From Callorhinchus milii (taxonomy: Eukaryota), in contig NW_024704742.1 in NCBI RefSeq assembly GCF_018977255.1, positions 29,266,001 through 29,330,000 of the forward strand: a stretch of 64,000 nucleotides of DNA, given 5' to 3'. The position numbers and the translations under genes are program-made. Numbering within the stretch: the first letter of the stretch is position 1; the number at the start of each line of letters is the position of its first letter. Under the pieces are notes generated by a model, which did not search any database, had not been told where the DNA came from, and was given only the letters and a program-made list of their open reading frames with translations. This document shows, piece by piece, positions 27,451-64,000 of the stretch.

Positions 27451-30039
27451 TAAGGACTTGAGCCTGACATGATTTGAACACGTAGCCTTCTCATCTGGAC
27501 TCAAATGTGCTACGGTTGCACCTTCTCTTTTTGAATAGGTCCACGGGATCTTTGATGTCCACCTGAATAAGCAGATGGAACCTCAGTTTAATGTCTCACC
27601 CAAAAAAACGTACCTCCAACAACGCAGCACACCCCAGCACTGCGCTGAAGTGTGAGTTCAAAGTTCTGATGCAATGCATCCAAGTAATACAAAGCCCTCT
27701 GATCAGACTATAACTTGTAAGTCACTTCCTCCTGTTGCTTTTTATACTACTTTTGTCTATCACAGGGGAAAACATGCCAATATGATAATACTGCTATTAG
27801 TACAGTATGTAACATTGGAGTCTTACTTAATGTTTTTTTATAGTGATGTTTAGTGCTGGTAAATATAAAATGAGCCAATGAAACAGTCTGTTGAATTTCT
27901 ATGAGCTGAAATGCCAGACGGAAGAACCAAACAGCCAGCAATTCCACTAATATGGTTTTGATTCCAGATTGTACGGCTTCACCCTTAGAGAGAAGAGATT
28001 AAAATTTAATCAATGCTGCCACCTGCATCTTGTACCTGGGAGACAAAGATAAACTGAAAAAGATGTCTTGCGATATAGATGTACACCTGTCCTTATCCCA
28101 TTGTGCATGTTTTTCACAAAAGACCATGTTAAGCAGCCATATAAATGCTAAATAGGTTGTCATATTATCAAAGGAATAGACTGGGGCAAAACAGTAAGTT
28201 TCTCAGAAAAAGTTCCGTGCGAGGGATAGGAGGAGGACAGAAGGCGGTGGCCTTATCAGCTGAGGTACACATGTCTAGAAGTCTCAAAGCACTTCACAGG
28301 ATATACTATAAAGTGGATTGACTCTATATTTCGTGAGCGAAACATGGCAGTCAGTTGAACAGGCAGACCTCAGTTTTACGTCTCATCCGAAATACTCCAA
28401 CAACAGAATCTAATAGTGGTGGACTTGCACATCAAAGTATTTTGAAATCTTGAGGCCACAACAGCAGCAGAAGTCATAGACGAAACAAATGACATTTTTG
28501 CCAGTTATACTGACAGAAATAATAAGCGCTAAAATGGACCACAATTTTCACCAACAAGGACTGGAACATAAAACGCACGGCCACGTCACCCACAAAGTTT
28601 ATAGAATGAATGTTCCACACAAAGCAAAGGCAACACAGGATCTATGGCACTCTGTGAGTCCAGCTTTGGTGGCAGAGAGAGTGGCACTCTGTGCCACCAA
28701 AGCCTACCACTTGCATGAATCATCACTTTCAGGAGAGCGGAGAAAACTGGAGGGTGGTGGTGGGACAAAACATCCTGGGAAGATTAGCTTCTTATTTAAA
28801 TTCTTATTGTAATATTAATTAGTGGAGATTAATGCAGATTATTATACCGATAAACCTTAGGTACAGATACAATATAATCTGTGACAGGACACAGAAAGTC
28901 GGATTTAGGAAGAAACCCGAGAACAATACAGCATCAATTTACATGTAAGCAGTGTCTTTCACGTGGGGAGGACGTCTCAAAGCACTTCACAGTGCTGTGT
29001 GGGCACCCTGCACATGGGGGTGGAAGCCGAGGGCGTGAGGGGAAAGATGACCAAAAGCACAAAGACGTACATTTTGAGACATGCCTTGAACGAAGGGAGG
29101 GATTGAGCAAGTCAACCTGCGCTTGACATTCTCTAATTAAGTAAGCAGGATGCATCTCTCCAGGGAGAAAACGCGCACTCCATTCAAGACACAGAGAAAC
29201 TTCTGTATATTGGTGGCATATATTTATGGAATTCTGTCTGATTTTGAATACTCTTATCCTAAACGTGGTGATGGGTTTCCACGTGTGTCAGACACCCATC
29301 TGACCAGTAAAATGCAGTCATTGGAAAATGGAGCACAATTCACAAAAAGCCTCCCAAGAGGTGGTGATCCACAGCTAAAATCAGTCAGAACTTGAGTATA
29401 ATCTTTGATAGATTATTTTATCATTGTGCTCTCAATCACTGTCCTCTGGAACTCCCTGCCCCAATCCCTCCACCTTTGCCCATCTTCAGATCACACCTGA
29501 AGGCTTTCCTTTTCGATCGTGCCTGCTGCCACCTCCCATGTTTTCCCAGCTCGGCATCAAACGTACCCCACTGATAAGCACTCCGAGACGCTACCCCAAA
29601 TGAAAGGCTCTATATAAATGCACGTTGCTGTTCTTGTTATTTAAAACACATTTTCCAACAAGGTTCCAAATAAATCCATTCTCTCTTTCATTTAGTGAGC
29701 CCTGCTAGCTTAATGTACACGTTTTGTGCTGTGCTTTGTTGATGACAGGAGCATCGCAGCATCAGTCTTTGGTACATCTATAAAGGCTTTTTATTTCTCT
29801 AAATATCCCAATTTTTCATTTGCACAACTGACAAGCCATATTCTGCTTCAGCGCCAACAATATTGATTTGGCCTGTAATCTACAATCAGTCTTGCCTCTT
29901 GCCATTTAGCTGAGAGAGCTGTTTAGTTTGCAGAAAATGATGTATCTGCACAATGCAACATTTTAATTTGCACCGTTAAAGAATGCACAGTTCTTTGAAA
30001 ACGTGGAGTATTATTACTTTTACACAGGGTTAATTTGAC

Positions 30040-30606
30040 TGGTTCAGATTGTACCTCTCACACCACCTCCACTTCATCCCCATAAACATTTTCTCCTCTA
30101 GCCCCCGCACCGTCTCATATGGCGTTCCTCAGGGCTCTGTCCTTGGTCCCCTCCTCTTCAATATCTATGTGCTCCCTCTTGGTGACATCATCCACAGACA
30201 TGGGGTCAACGTCCACATATTTGTAGATGACACCCAACTCTACCTCTCTGCCTCCACCCTTGACGCCAGGACCATCAAGTCCTGGATGAGAGTTAATTTT
30301 CTTCAGTTGAACGTTAACAAGATTGAGGCTCTCCTGATTAGCTCCCGTCAGCGCCTCCTCATCTCAGGTGCTGACAGCATCACCATCCATGGTTGCACAC
30401 TCCACATTACTAAGCCAGTCCAGAACCTTGAGGTCTTGTTGAACCCTCAACTATCCTTTCTATCCCACATCTATGCCATGACCCACTCTGTCTTCCCCCA
30501 CCTCCACAACATCTCCTGGCTCTGCCACTGTCTCACACCGCAGGCCCCCGAAACCTTCATACACACTTTCATTACATCGAAGCTCGACTATGCAAACTCC
30601 TTGCTT
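30040..30606 (+). mobile_element. L2 LINE internal RT fragment
   Basis: GVPQGSVLGPLLFNIY, FVDDTQLY, NFLQLN..KIE, ITSKLDYANSLL. Confidence 0.95.
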
Positions 30607-31825
30607 CGAAAGTCAGGCTAGTCTATGTTCAAGTTCAAAGTCCTAATGTGGAGTTTGGACCCACAATCTTTCGATATGATTGAGAGGTAAATTTCACCCA
30701 CAAAATATACAGTCAATTTCACTTTACAGTATATTCTGTGAAGCGCTTTGAGACGTCTAGAAGACGTGAAAAGCGCTATATCAAATGCAAGGATTATTAT
30801 TATTAAGTGCGCCACCAAGTCAAATTGGCCAAAGAGTATTCTTCAATCTAATCTCACATTAAATGTGTTGTAACACACTGAAGGGCCACAAGGTGCCGGT
30901 GTTCCCCACGTTGTATGCTTTGAAAGACAATGCCAAGTTAAATAGTGGAAAATTCTTCCCTTTGGTGGAGGGATCCATTACAAGAGTACATAGCCTTAAA
31001 ACCAGAACCAAGACAGTTAGAACTGAAGGCCAAAAAAACAGAGGGTTGTGAAGATGAGGAATTTTCTGCTCCAGAAAGTTATAGAATTAGAATCAATAGG
31101 AATGTCTAAAAAAACCCAACAAAATCTTAAATAATAGTCTTTGCATTTTGATATAGCCCCACATTATTGAGATATCTCAAAATGCTTCATTTTATTGTGA
31201 AGTGCAGTGGTTGTGTATTTGTAGGTGAACGCAGCCGTCAATCCGTTCGGACTGAGTATGAAAATTGGAACATGGCGCTACGTGGGAAACTCAAGCACTA
31301 TTTGGCCGTTTGCTGAATCACAGCAATTCTCTGTGGTGATCTGAGCAGCCTGTTTACTGAGTCAGCTCTGCAATACTACAACAAACGACAACAAATTACA
31401 TTTATGTAGCTCCTTTCGTGTCGCTGGACAGTCGAGAGTTTACACCTGAGCTGTAGTTTAGAATCAAGAGGCATGTGTGCGCGGGTGGTGGTGGTGGTGG
31501 GGGGGGGAAGATGACCGAAGCCGCCGGTCAAAGAGAAATGTCTTGAGATGCACCTTGGAGGAGAGGAGGGAATGGACGAGGCAGAGGGACTCCGGGATGA
31601 AGTTCCAAAGAATGGGGCCAGAAAGGTTGCCGACGGTGGGGACGGGGTGGAGGGAGTAGGCGGAGTTAGGGTTGTATGGAAGGGGGTGGGGGGTTGCAGT
31701 GGAGAGGTTTCAAAGTGAGGACAAGGATGTTGAGCTGAATACTCTGGGACTGTACTCTGGGGAACAAATTCATCCTAAATCAGATGCCCTGGTTTAGAAC
31801 TTTTCCCAGTGCCTTGTGAACTCTG

Positions 31826-33730: not shown

Positions 33731-33735
33731 TCAGA

Positions 33736-35112
33736 GACAGGCAGTGAGGGAGGGGAACAGGCAGTGAGACAGGCAGTGAGGGAGGGGGACAGGCAGTGAG
33801 GGAGGGGGACAGGCAGTGAGGGAGGGGGACAGGCAGTGAGACAGGCAGTGAGGGAGGGGGACAGGCAGTGAGGGAGGGGGACAGGCAGTGAGGGAGGGGG
33901 ACGGGCAGTGAGACAGGCAGTGAGGGAAGGGGACAGGCAGTGAGGGAGGGGACAGGCAGTGAGGGTGGGGGACAGGCAGTGAGGGTGGGGGACAGGCAGT
34001 GAGGGAGGGGGACAGACAGTGAGACAGGCAGTGAGGGAGGGGGACAGGCAGTGAGGGAGGGGGACAGGCAGTGAGGGAGGGGGACAGGCAGTGAGGGAGG
34101 GGGACAGGCAGTGAGACAGGCAGTGAGGGAGGGGGACAGGCAGTGAGGGAGGGGGACAGGCAGTGAGGGAGGGGAACAGGCAGTGAGGGAGGGGGACAGG
34201 CAGTGAGGGAGGGAGGGAGTGAGGGAGGGGAACAGGCAGTGAGGGAGGGGGACAGGCAGTGAGACAGGCAGTGAGGGAGGGAGATAGTGAGACAGGCAGT
34301 GAGGGAGGGGGACAGGCAGTGAGGGAGGGGAACAGGCAGTGAGGGAGGGGGACAGGCAGTGAGGGAGGGAGGGAGTGAGGGAGGGGAACAGGCAGTGAGG
34401 GAGGGGACAGGCAGTGAGACAGGCAGTGAGGGAGGGGGACGGGCAGTGAGACAGGCAGTGAGGGAGGGGGACAGGCAGTGAGGGAGGGGGACAGGCAGTG
34501 AGACAGGCAGTGAGGGAGGGGGACAGGCAGTGAGGGAGGGGGACAGGCAGTGAGACAGGCAGTGAGGGAGGGGCACAGGCAGTGAGACAGGCAGTGAGGG
34601 AGGGGGACAGGCAGTGAGGGAGGGGGACAGGCAGTGAGGGAGGGAGATAGTGAGACAGGCAGTGAGGGAGGGGGACAGGCAGTGAGGGAGGGAGGGAGTG
34701 AGGGAGGGGAACAGGCAGTGAGGGAGGGGGACAGGCAGTGAGGGAGGGAGGGAGTGAGGGAGGGGAACAGGCAGTGAGGGAGGGGGACAGGCAGTGAGAC
34801 AGGCAGTGAGGGAGGGGGACGGGCAGTGAGACAGGCAGTGAGGGAGGGGGACGGGCAGTGAGACAGGCAGTGAGGGAGGGGGACAGGCAGTGAGACAGGC
34901 AGTGAGGGAGGGGGACAGGCAGTGAGGGAGGGGGACAGGCAGTGAGACGGGCAGTGAGGGAGGGGCACAGGCAGTGAGACAGGCAGTGAGGGAGGGGGAC
35001 AGGCAGTGAGGGAGGGGGACAGGCAGTGAGACGGGCAGTGAGGGAGGGGCACAGGCAGTGAGACAGGCAGTGAGGGTGGGGGACAGGCAGTGAGACAGGC
35101 AGTGAGGGAGGG
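33736..35112 (+). repeat. G-rich minisatellite (interspersed 20-bp GACAGGCAGTGAGGGAGGGG and 12-bp GACAGGCAGTGA units)
   Basis: Directly visible ~1.38-kb tandem array with variant units and extreme purine/G strand skew. Confidence 0.98.
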
Positions 35113-35614: not shown

Positions 35615-35804
35615 ATGTATTGGAGGGCAGCAACTCGTCTCCAGGCTCGTCTCCCGCTCCAGCAGCAACAGCAGCTGCTGATGATGATGATGTCGGGGGT
35701 CCCAGGACCTCCCCCCAGAGCTGCCCTGAGGAAGGCTGGGAGTGCCCGCGGCAGGACAGCCCCGGGTGCGACCGAGGCCACTGGAGGAGGAGAGGCGGCA
35801 GCAG
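35615..35804 (+). CDS. NOCT: Nocturnin coding exon 1 (putative mitochondrial targeting sequence)
   Basis: ATG at 35615 opens MYWRAATRLQARLPLQQQQQLLMMMMSG...GGGEAAA, Arg-rich with no acidic residue in the first 53 aa. It ends at a consensus donor CAG|GTGAGT (35805). The 190-nt phase-1 exon joins exon 2 as G|TG (Val), placing the second Met at position 67 and giving 431 aa in total, as recalled for human NOCT. Primary-sequence similarity of this exon is low; the call rests on splice phase, length and position. Confidence 0.78.
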
Positions 35805-52931: not shown

Positions 52932-53204
52932 TGTGTTCTATGGGACCCAAAACCAGCAGGCTGTACAGTGCTCTGGCTCCGACTATAACCACAAATGGAA
53001 TCCCACAGGTGCCTAAGTTCATGATGGACCCCAACCTGGAACCGCTTGATCCAACAGACCCCAGTGACCTCCTGAAGGAATGTCAGAAAGCTCTAGAGAA
53101 GCGTCCGCCCCGGCTCCAGCGGGACTTCCTGGAGCTAAGGAAGATCCAAGTTCCCACTGATTGCCGCCCGATCCGGGTCATGCAGTGGAACATACTAGCA
53201 CAAG
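52932..53204 (+). CDS. NOCT: Nocturnin coding exon 2
   Basis: Acceptor tctcttgcag| at 52931 and donor CAAG|GTAGGG at 53205. Encodes (V)CSMGPKTSRLYSALA...RPPRLQRDF...PIRVMQWNILAQ, the nocturnin-specific VCSMG..SRLYSALA and EEP WNILAQ motifs. 273 nt, phase 1-1. Confidence 0.96.
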
Positions 53205-53654
53205 GTAGGGCAAGTCTCCCTGGCTACGCTGGTCACACAACAGAACCCACATTTAAAATGTGTGTTCTGGGGCGCTTGTATTAAATTGGATTCTGGTGAC
53301 GAGGTGGATTTCACGAACTAGTTCTTAATCTTGATATGTTTAATAACGTGTACTTCTACAGGATTACCCTAAAGCCAGTGTGTCCCACTTATTTAATCTG
53401 GAGATGAGACCAAGGTTTCACTGCCTTCTGCTGAGTCAAAATAATTCTGGGACATCTTAGCCACATGTTCCTATGGTCCTCCACAACTTTTTTTTAAGAT
53501 TAAAGCTTCTTTATTTTTGCTAACATTTGTATTCTACTGTACTGCCTATCAACAAGTTTACCATCTCTGCTGTAGTTTGTTCAAATGTGTTAATGTAAGT
53601 ATTAGCCCTAAAAGTTGATGTGCTTAGAGCTATTCAACTACTGGTCATATGCCT

Positions 53655-54683
53655 GACGCTGACAGCATCACCATCCATGGATGCCTTCCCCCACCTCCAC
53701 AATATCGCCCGGCTCTGCCACTGTCTCACACCGCAGGCCACCAAAACCCTCATATATGCTTTCATTACATCAAAGCTCAACTATGCAAACTCATTGCTCG
53801 TCGGCCCCAACTCCTCCCTTCATAGGCCGCAGGTCATCCAGAACTCTGCAGCCCGTGTCTTCTCCCGCACGAGCCTCTGTGACCCTATCACCCCCATCTT
53901 TGCCCGACTCCACTGGTTTCCCATCACACAGAGGATACAGTTCAAGATCCTGGACCTCACCTTCAAAGCCCTCCATGGCCTTGTTCTCCCCCTACCTCTG
54001 CGACCTCCTAACTCCCAAGCATCCTGCCCGTTCCCTCCACTCAGCGGGCTCCGGCCTGCTTCACATCCCCCGCCTCGCCCATCCCACCATTGGCGGGTAG
54101 GCCTTGTGCCACTGTACCCCCATCCTTTGGAATTCCATCCCTCAGTCCCTCCACCTCACCCCCTCCCTGGCCTCCTTCAAGACTCATCTCAAGATCTCCT
54201 CTTCGACCATGCCTTCGATCACCCTCTTTCCCCCCCCACCCTGCCCTCCAGCCTCCCCGATTCCCGACTCCCAGCTCAGGTCCGAAATACTGACTGTCCA
54301 GCACCTTGGGACGTCCTCCTGACATGAAAATAATAATAATCCTTGCATTTGATATAGCGCTTTTCACGTCGGGAGGACATCCCAAAGTGCTTCACAGAAT
54401 ATACTGTAAAGTGAATTGACTTTATATTTGTGGGCGAACGCGGCAGCCAATTGCGCACAGCAATGTCCCACAAAGAGTCGTAGATTGAAAATGATCAATT
54501 TATTATTGTTTTTGGTTTTGGAGGGATTATTATTAGGCTCTGTGTGGAGTAAGGAAACTTGCCCAAGGTTTCGCCCTCTGCCTGGAATTGAACTCAGGTC
54601 TCTCACTTGCAAAGCGAGTGCTCGAACCACTGAGCTACAGGACTCCATGAAAGACGCTATACAAAGTCATTTTGTTGTTGTTA
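53655..54683 (+). mobile_element. L2 LINE 3' fragment in NOCT intron 2, interrupted by a SINE
   Basis: LHNIARL...FITSKLNYANSLL...LHWFPITQRIQFKIL; the tail resumes at 54647 after the SINE. Confidence 0.93.
54330..54646 (-). mobile_element. Same SINE (short variant), full length, with TSD
   Basis: Close reverse complement of 48742-49070; ATGAAA duplicated at 54324-54329 and 54647-54652. Confidence 0.92.
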
Positions 54684-55210: not shown

Positions 55211-56043
55211 CTCTGGGGGAATGGAAGGACAATTTCATCAAGTGTCCGAGAGAAGCTTTGAACTGGTCCGAGCGTAAATACCTCATCCTGGAGGAGATCG
55301 TAACCTACCGGCCTGATATTGTGTGTTTGCAGGAGGTGGACCACTACTTTGACACCTTCCAGCCGGTACTCCGAGGGCTGGGTTATCACTCCACCTTCTA
55401 CCCTAAACCGCGGTCGCCGTGCTTGGATGTGGAGAACAACAATGGGCCGGATGGATGCGCCTTGTTCTTCCTACGGGAGAGGTTTGAGCTGCTTGACAGC
55501 GTCACCCTCCGTCTGGTGGCCAAGAGGCTGCAGACCAACCAAGTGGCCATTGCCCAGACTTTGCGCTGCGTGGAGACGGGCAAAGTCTTCTGCGTAGCCG
55601 TGACCCACCTCAAAGCCTGCAGTGGGTGGGAACGATTCCGCTCGTCGCAAGGCAGCCACCTGCTCCACAACCTGGAGAGCATCACTGAGGGGGGCGGCGC
55701 ACCCCTCATCGTGTGCGGAGACTTCAATGCCGAGCCCACTGAGGATGTATACAAACAGTTCAGCTTGTCCAGCCTGAACCTAAACAGTGCTTACAAGCTG
55801 CTGAGCAAAGACGGGCAGTCGGAGCCTCGCTTCACCACCTGGAAAATCCGCACGACCGGAGAGAGCTGCCACACTTTGGATTACATCTGGTATTCCAAGC
55901 AGGCTTTCATTGTGAATACGTTACTCAATATGCCAACAGAGGAACAGATTGGCCCAAATCGGTTACCATCCTTCCACTATCCCTCCGATCACTTGTCTCT
56001 CGTGTGTGAGTTCAGCTTCACGGACAATCCCATTAAATCCTGA
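55211..56043 (+). CDS. NOCT: Nocturnin coding exon 3 (EEP/CCR4-like NADP(H) 2'-phosphatase domain)
   Basis: Polypyrimidine tract plus acacag| at 55210. Encodes CLQEVDH, NNGPDGCALFF, THLKA, GDFNAEP, TTWKIR, TLDYIWYS and YPSDHLSL; stop TGA at 56041-56043. Confidence 0.98.
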
Positions 56044-63045: not shown

Positions 63046-63688
63046 TTATTTTTCTCCCGTCACCGTCGATTCTGCCTCTGTTTTGGACGTCAAAGGAAGG
63101 GCAATGGCCGACGGCGTGTTGACGACAACCCAGCGAGTCAAAGTCTTGCTGCCCTCCACAATTCGCTCCACTTCCTTGATCACGGGCAGGTTGTGCAGCT
63201 CTGCCCCCACCTTCCCTCTCTGCCCTTGCTGCCTCATCTCCGGTCCTTTGATGACCGCTGTGATGACTTGAGGAGCACTTTGGCCTCCTGCCTGCTGGGC
63301 GGGCACTGCTAGCCTCATGACCGGCGTGCCCCCCGCCACCGACACGGGGGACAGAGCTTGAATGGCTGTCGCCGCCCCCACCACATTAATGCCGCCGGAC
63401 GTAGCCAGGCCTGCCTTTGTCTGTAAGTGGCACTGGGCTATCTGTGCCACGGGGATGGTGATGATTTTGGTGGGCTGCATCGCGATTTTGTCGCCATTCT
63501 CTGCCGTGCCGGCGGGCACCATGGTAGGAATAGTCTGGATGACCACCTTCGGGGTCGAGCCAGTGGTGTTTGTACTGGTTATTACCGTGGAAACAGGATT
63601 CAGCGTCTGGACGGCCATCGTTGAAAACTTCTGCCCCGAGGAGGTCATGACGACAGGCACTTGCATTGCCACCCGTAAGGTTCTGCTG
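63046..63688 (-). CDS. ELF2: ETS-related transcription factor Elf-2 (NERF), last coding exon; upstream exons lie beyond the window
   Basis: Minus-strand ORF RTLRVAMQVPVVMTS.GQK...PKVVIQTIPT...ENGDKI.MQP.KIITIP...GTPVMRL...AVIKGPE...PSAIALP...EK* matches the ELF2 C-terminus. Acceptor tttctctgccag|; TAA at 63048-63046. ELF2 is the known tail-to-tail neighbour of NOCT. Confidence 0.95.
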
Positions 63689-64000
63689 CTGGCAGAGAAA
63701 ACAAAAATTGACAAATTAGCAATAATTACCCATTTCCCTTCAGGTTTCGAGTTCCACTTACTGTGAAGTCTCATTCTTTTCTGGAATGCATATAAGACAG
63801 GTGCTTAATGTCAGCCTGACTCAGTGGGTAACCCTCTTTTCTCTAAGGCAGAAGGTTGTCGGTATAAAATATGATAAACTGCTAATAGCTCGTCATTCCA
63901 AGGGAAAAGGGTTCAGTGACAAGTTATGCTGAGAGGCAAGTTAAACATGCGTATAAATACATAAATGCGTATGCAATATTTTGAGATGACTGGCCAATCC

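Follow-up and report, generated by a model that had tools for sequence, protein, structure and literature searches.

The nocturnin gene (NOCT) of the elephant shark encodes a cysteine, Cys291, in place of the lid arginine of the human enzyme, and this cysteine is shared across the cartilaginous fishes examined, which excludes a defect of a single animal. From the comparison of sequences we propose, with moderate confidence, that the chondrichthyan protein is a working NADP(H) 2'-phosphatase whose pocket rim was rebuilt on the chondrichthyan stem, the arginine lid being lost and Trp159 covering the gap. The window, that is, the whole stretch of DNA analysed, is 64,000 nucleotides long. Shark residue numbers are the human numbers plus one.

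The pocket of human nocturnin

In human NOCT the adenine has weak density and is sandwiched by R290 and R367 through cation-pi contacts, and the stable contacts of NADPH go to the sugar-phosphate backbone (PMC6542800). The first-pass annotation of this DNA had placed R290 in a basic patch that recognises NADP(H). The residue does contact the substrate, but as an adenine-stacking lid seen in weak density, the stable contacts being made to the backbone. In the same study every pocket mutant tested was detrimental, and its oligonucleotide table contains primers for R290A, R367A, D160A and D160A/F162Y (Estrella 2019, PMC6542800). The deadenylases are described there as having Trp at the position of NOCT Ala289, where it clashes with NADPH, and as being without the NOCT-specific coil.

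An earlier report treats R290 as a conserved lid that occludes the active site, with no assigned function, and proposes it as a possible switch; the R290A mutant failed to unlock poly(A) cleavage (Estrella 2018, PMC6214945). It also places D160 in a motif that lies over the active site, with P220-N230 in a coil beside it, and states that NOCT is without the hydrophobic base-docking patches found in PDE12 and CNOT6L (PMC6214945). Another paper assigns K219 and K288 to the basic cleft; R290 is absent from its main-text description in the part available (PMC6158716). Redox control of mammalian NOCT via C136, C302 and C372 has been described, and the Xenopus protein, which is without equivalents of these cysteines, is constitutive; sharks and R290 are absent from the available text of that work (PMC13241770). 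In the open-access literature, subscription journals being mostly outside its coverage, no published description of an R290 to Cys substitution was found.

The NOCT gene and its cysteine codon

The codon TGC at 55618-55620 of the forward strand, read in the frame of exon 3, gives THLKACSGWE, and its residue is Cys291 of the 431-aa model. When solved structures were searched with phmmer, human nocturnin chains were the top relatives of the exon 3 product (E 2e-140), and Cys291 stood opposite human Arg290 (THLKARTGWE in 6MAL, 6NF0 and 6BT1), which confirms the equivalence assigned at first sight. The encoded protein is 100% identical to a Callorhinchus milii record named nocturnin X1 and falls inside a 68-row vertebrate NOCT clade with support 98/99. 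Human NOCT also provided the top structural matches of the predicted shark model (TM 0.96 over the target, 72-73% identity). The gene has three coding exons, the first of them predicted; the 365-aa isoform starts in exon 2, which also encodes the catalytic Asn150 (53189-53191), and exon 3 encodes most of the EEP catalytic domain (PF03372). The locus is the elephant shark NOCT, an intact and spliced gene (Table 1).

Table 1. Coordinates in the window of the NOCT exons and of the codons discussed in the text.
Feature	Position	Strand	Basis or remark
Exon 1 (predicted), 431-aa isoform	35615..35804	+	tblastn with P0001; GT donor
NOCT exon 2	52932..53204	+	tblastn; spliced contigs carry its 3' end as their loose end
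NOCT exon 3, coding part to stop	55211..56043	+	open frame, Pfam PF03372, tblastn, spliced contigs
Trp159 codon TGG	55222..55224	+	human Gly158; two residues before D161 (human D160)
Arg222 codon	55411..55413	+	human Trp221; NOCT-specific coil beside the active site
Cys291 codon TGC	55618..55620	+	human Arg290: active-site lid, one side of the adenine sandwich
Phe362 codon	55831..55833	+	human Tyr361; conservative change
Arg368 codon	55849..55851	+	human Arg367, second of the two arginines that stack on the adenine; kept

Contigs of runs X1, X8 and X5, which come from three studies with one organism code, cover the cysteine codon and present no alternative letter in it; contigs from 4 of the 24 listed runs were compared, and contigs lose rare variants, so that a rare Arg allele may have escaped them. 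Those of X1 and X8 begin at the boundary of exon 3, their loose end corresponding to the end of exon 2, and were therefore taken as spliced, a call that rests on the loose ends of contigs, no listed run being recorded as RNA. Run X16 derives from a second organism of about 92% similarity; the rows listed, from which 40 are missing, give differences at 55614 and 55623 and none at 55618-55620, so that the codon is probably shared. The reading of this codon as Cys is thus borne out by the frame, by the phmmer alignment and by contigs of three studies. The proposed route to it, a single CpG transition from CGC, is possible, the human codon being CGC in the primers of Table S2 of Estrella 2019.

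An assembly error or a rare allele had been left as alternatives by the first-pass annotation. We rejected an assembly error or private allele, given the same codon in three studies, with no other letter in X1, X5 or X8, and a Cys that is clade-wide, in 22/22 chondrichthyan species. A pseudogene was likewise rejected in view of the open frame, the exons found intact by tblastn and the purifying selection described below. What can be said for an error or rare allele is that the codon was checked on contigs only; with the spliced contigs and the other evidence on the opposite side, we regard an assembly error, a rare allele or a decaying pseudogene as extremely improbable.

Residue 290/291 across nocturnin homologues

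In the best 120 of 857 clusters of homologues, residue 291 is Cys in 14 and Arg in 106, and 13 of the 14 Cys rows are of chondrichthyan type. When cluster members were added, Cys was present in all 53 chondrichthyan rows, which represent 22 named species of sharks and rays together with one chimaera among them, and chondrichthyan NOCT forms one clade with support 100/99 and short crown branches. The 246 rows taken as bony vertebrates comprise 240 with Arg, five with Cys and one with Leu, the latter in a copy of Anguilla rostrata. The named exceptions are all teleosts, namely Paramormyrops (with Brienomyrus in its cluster), one Gymnothorax copy, Collichthys and Anguilla rostrata, and the unnamed Cys-bearing rows group with percomorphs. 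Collichthys has Cys and Larimichthys Arg, the two being 95% identical. No residue other than Arg was found in the tetrapod, coelacanth, lungfish, bichir, sturgeon or gar rows examined; the vertebrate counts include no row named lamprey or hagfish among the matches listed.

The alignment across chondrichthyans and other vertebrates, which had been suggested as a check, was run and identifies Cys as a trait of the chondrichthyan clade. The premise that vertebrate nocturnins all have Arg proved to be wrong, since Cys is present in all chondrichthyans examined and in a few copies from teleosts. Whether Cys is common among orthologues, which had been offered as a ground for giving up the original reading, has a divided answer: it is fixed in 22/22 chondrichthyan species and recurs in teleosts, whereas 240/246 bony-vertebrate rows keep Arg. 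On the whole the original observation is confirmed, and the interpretation given with it holds in part.

Beyond the vertebrates, column 291 of 146 distant representatives contains K in 68, R in 41, a gap in seven and other residues in 30; K or R is thus present in 109 of the 139 with a residue at the column, the 30 with neither including some that are poorly aligned. Amphioxus NOCT has Arg there. Because K and R prevail in the distant representatives and amphioxus has Arg, the basic residue is read as ancestral and Cys as derived. A single origin of Cys was rejected by an AU test on 41 hand-chosen rows with the trait column masked (p 4.5e-20; 7 changes on the 41-row tree). About five separate origins of Cys, and none of His, can be counted across the vertebrate rows, and these numbers are small. 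CpG decay of CGC, the codon in human NOCT, is expected to yield Cys and His about equally.

Two observations on individual rows can be added. In mormyrids (P0088, P0161, P0167), the full-length copy of both genera reads Cys-Cys at 290-291, and the sole Paramormyrops copy found to bear Arg is a short model on a long branch, without the C-terminal PSDH motif and its catalytic His; these fishes are possibly a second lineage relying on a Cys-type nocturnin. In P0159, a low-quality model of a second copy in the stingray Hypanus sabinus, on a second, shorter contig, Cys is present at 291 and Gln replaces R368, with which both adenine-stacking arginines are gone; this row is either a recent decaying duplicate or an assembly artefact.

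Changes accompanying Cys291

The 130 positions with 99% invariance or more across 107 bony-vertebrate rows were compared with 13 chondrichthyan rows. At 126 of them all 13 rows are identical to the bony vertebrates, and three are changed in all 13: G159W, R291C and Y362F. The fourth changed site is D227A, in four ray rows (Mobula, Hypanus) that also have Leu at 375. The first-pass annotation had omitted the two further changes fixed in chondrichthyans, Gly158 to Trp and Tyr361 to Phe in human numbers. Trp occupies position 159 in 13/13 chondrichthyan rows, against Gly in the 106/106 bony-vertebrate rows with a residue there, and with cluster members added the counts for W159 are 53/53 and 0/246; it is absent from all 146 distant representatives, among which 47 are gapped at this place. 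Position 362 is Phe in 13/13 chondrichthyan rows versus Tyr in 107/107 bony-vertebrate rows, and Phe also occurs in 44/146 distant representatives and in 9/109 teleost rows; given this occurrence elsewhere, Y362F is probably a minor change. Position 222 varies within chondrichthyans (R/S/L/F) and is Trp in 102/107 bony-vertebrate rows. Outside vertebrates it is often Asp, with Trp in a tunicate, and no clear ancestral residue emerges.

Since G158W and Y361F are fixed alongside the lost arginine, the single C291R revertant, proposed earlier as an assay, would not be a clean test. No chondrichthyan stem lineage survives from which the three changes could be ordered.

Retained features, selection and copy number

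The 90-row alignment A1 shows no variation at E196, H287, K289, D325, N327, D378, H415 or R368, and hardly any at N150; the annotated catalytic set and K289 are all present, as had been claimed. R368 is kept in 22/22 chondrichthyan species, and the same is true of the NOCT-specific P220, P223, L225, N230, D160, K365 and R367 (human numbers) and of Ala290, which corresponds to human Ala289 and to Trp in deadenylases. The lysines K220, K289 and K366 (human K219, K288 and K365) are unchanged in the shark protein. With Ala at the 289 position and the coil present, this protein does not classify as a CCR4-type deadenylase. It also departs from the canonical two-arginine adenine sandwich, the lid position being Cys in 53/53 chondrichthyan rows.

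Across the 22 chondrichthyan species 214 of 281 catalytic-domain positions (76%) are invariant, and the chimaera NOCT is 85-88% identical to those of five sharks and rays. Between the window and organism B, the exon differences amount to 21 synonymous and 7 non-synonymous (pN/pS 0.10, an uncorrected value from the listed rows up to 55746 only, with one two-change codon counted wholly as non-synonymous). Judged from these comparisons, chondrichthyan NOCT is under purifying selection.

A second, Arg-bearing chondrichthyan NOCT was found neither among the best 120 of 857 matches nor, with an amphioxus query, among the best 120 of 1150. The amphioxus query listed both teleost paralogues, yet from chondrichthyans only the known rows, in its best 120 of 1150. 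These listings argue against a hidden Arg-bearing copy in chondrichthyans and still allow a fast-evolving one. In the available text of the literature on these genes, teleosts carry duplicated noc genes and chondrichthyans are mentioned for splice variants only (PMC10779419). As regards the predicted models, the loop residues 155-160 have low confidence, with a block mean of 54 in the shark and in the mammalian control alike. Low confidence in this loop was considered as a sign of remodelling by W159 and was rejected, the mammalian control having the same block mean.

Discussion

If the rim was rebuilt on the chondrichthyan stem, Arg290 would have changed there to Cys, Gly158 to Trp and Tyr361 to Phe, position 221 would have become free to vary, and the new rim would have been kept from then on. 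Catalysis and recognition of the backbone would be as in human NOCT. The adenine would lose one of its two arginine partners, to be held by Arg368 alone or by Arg368 together with the new indole, and Trp159, in a flexible loop above the site, would fill the space of the lost arginine lid or that of Trp221. The outcome to be expected is an enzyme with a shifted Km or gating and not a dead one; loss of function in chondrichthyan NOCT is unlikely.

This proposal is supported by the 22/22 Cys species that form a single well-supported clade with short crown branches, by the near-invariant sites, nearly all kept and three changed in every chondrichthyan row, and by the invariant share of the catalytic domain taken together with the low pN/pS and the absence of a second NOCT type from the matches listed. 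The weak adenine density and the stable backbone contacts of the human complex agree with it (PMC6542800, available part), as does the location of D160 above the active site, two residues from the new Trp (PMC6214945, available part). The D160A and D160A/F162Y primers, in the available material of Estrella 2019, and the TM of 0.96 between the shark model and human NOCT give it further support. Trp159 probably compensates for the lost lid, as far as the aligned sequences can tell. Against such compensation, the teleost Cys copies are without Trp at 159, so that Cys may be tolerated uncompensated; Paramormyrops points the same way, since its one Arg copy found is short and without the C-terminal catalytic His. 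It also counts against a rebuilt rim that the W159 loop is of low confidence in the shark and the mammalian control models, and that all human pocket mutants tested were detrimental in the available text of Estrella 2019, where an R290A primer is listed.

It is possible, if somewhat doubtful, that no rebuilding took place: Cys came from a CpG transition at small cost, as R290 adds little binding energy, and the allele was fixed, with W159 and F362 unrelated to it and the enzyme somewhat weaker. The AU test and the seven changes on the tree indicate that Cys is recurrent, the human codon is CGC, the teleost Cys copies do without W159, and Collichthys differs from the closely related Larimichthys in this residue; moreover, with three quarters of the positions invariant in chondrichthyans, the invariance of C291 alone is weak evidence. 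On the other hand, the bony-vertebrate rows without Arg are confined to teleosts and rows grouping with them, a setting in which the loss may be buffered by a second paralogue. C291 has stayed constant over 22 species, against four residues at position 222, and two radical changes have been fixed among the 130 near-invariant sites, both in elements around the active site.

That the chondrichthyan nocturnin has diverged in function, acting on RNA ends or another nucleotide besides NADP(H), or being gated by oxidation of C291, we consider to have a low probability. This reading derives from the fact that an open lid and a Trp above the pocket would answer both published reasons why human NOCT cannot take RNA. 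For its substrate part, the loss of the lid and the added aromatic residue would make another phosphorylated nucleotide or an RNA end preferred or accepted. R290 occludes the human site and NOCT is without the base-docking patches of PDE12 and CNOT6L (PMC6214945, available part), and chondrichthyans both drop the lid arginine and gain a Trp near the site. Nevertheless, human R290A gave no poly(A) cleavage in the same report, Ala289 is kept together with P220, P223, L225, N230, D160, K365 and R367, and this is apparently the only type of NOCT in these fishes (best 120 of 1150 matches), all of which makes a shifted substrate rather improbable. As for gating, the thiol of C291, at the rim and next to K289, might be oxidised, glutathionylated or disulfide-linked, and the consumption of NADPH would then be lowered under oxidative stress. 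It would be an independent route to the control described for the mammalian cysteines (PMC13241770, available part); the shark is without all three of them (V137, S303, S373), a role that C291 could take, and Cys has arisen about five times where His, the other CpG product, has not, in small numbers. CpG decay, however, accounts for Cys without selection, and Xenopus NOCT is also without the three cysteines and is simply constitutive according to the available text of that work. The reactivity of C291, a proposal from the sequence, may coexist with a rebuilt rim; as an explanation in its own right, redox gating seems unlikely to us.

Compared with known systems, the shark protein shares with human nocturnin (6NF0, 6MAL, 6BT1) the fold, the catalytic residues, A289, K219/K288/K365, R367 and the NOCT-specific coil, and differs in the fixed R290C, G158W and Y361F, in a W221 that is not kept and in the absence of C136, C302 and C372. 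The teleost copies in which residue 290 is Cys or Leu (mormyrids, Gymnothorax, Collichthys, Anguilla rostrata and unnamed rows) have equally lost the lid arginine with the catalytic residues otherwise in place, but they have separate, scattered origins, belong to a lineage with duplicated noct genes and are without W158 (human number). CNOT6L, PDE12 and ANGEL2 share the EEP fold and the catalytic centre with shark NOCT, at 22-26% identity; they have Trp at the 289 position and are without the NOCT-specific coil, features for which the shark has the NOCT state. The redox-regulated mammalian NOCT gives a precedent for control by cysteine, but through other cysteines, none of C136, C302 and C372 being found in the shark (PMC13241770, available part). 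Taking the sequence features tested, the shark protein is a nocturnin on all of them save the lid arginine, and the chondrichthyan NOCT is a class-wide variant of a known enzyme and no new kind of system.

A whole vertebrate class in which the lid is replaced while the enzyme stays under purifying selection represents a natural experiment on the role of R290. Shark NOCT allows this role to be probed, whether in binding, gating or exclusion of RNA, and with it the compensation by G158W. The idea of a uniform NOCT pocket across vertebrates is hereby corrected.

Other features of the window

An ORF at 63046-63804 of the reverse strand, Ser/Thr/Val-rich and tail to tail with NOCT, has no Pfam match, and its top match in the Atlas bears another name; it may represent the terminal exon of ELF2, the gene next to noct in fishes. 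In cyprinids elf2 lies downstream of noct (PMC10779419, available part). The ORF at 53599-54327 of the forward strand, inside NOCT intron 2, is also without a Pfam match. This intron 2 ORF may be the 3' fragment of a LINE. A reverse-transcriptase fragment (PF00078) lies at 30034-30621 of the forward strand. A purine-rich tandem array with strong GC and AT skew, made of about 70 copies of a 20-base unit, extends from 33734 to 35112, about 500 bases upstream of the predicted exon 1.
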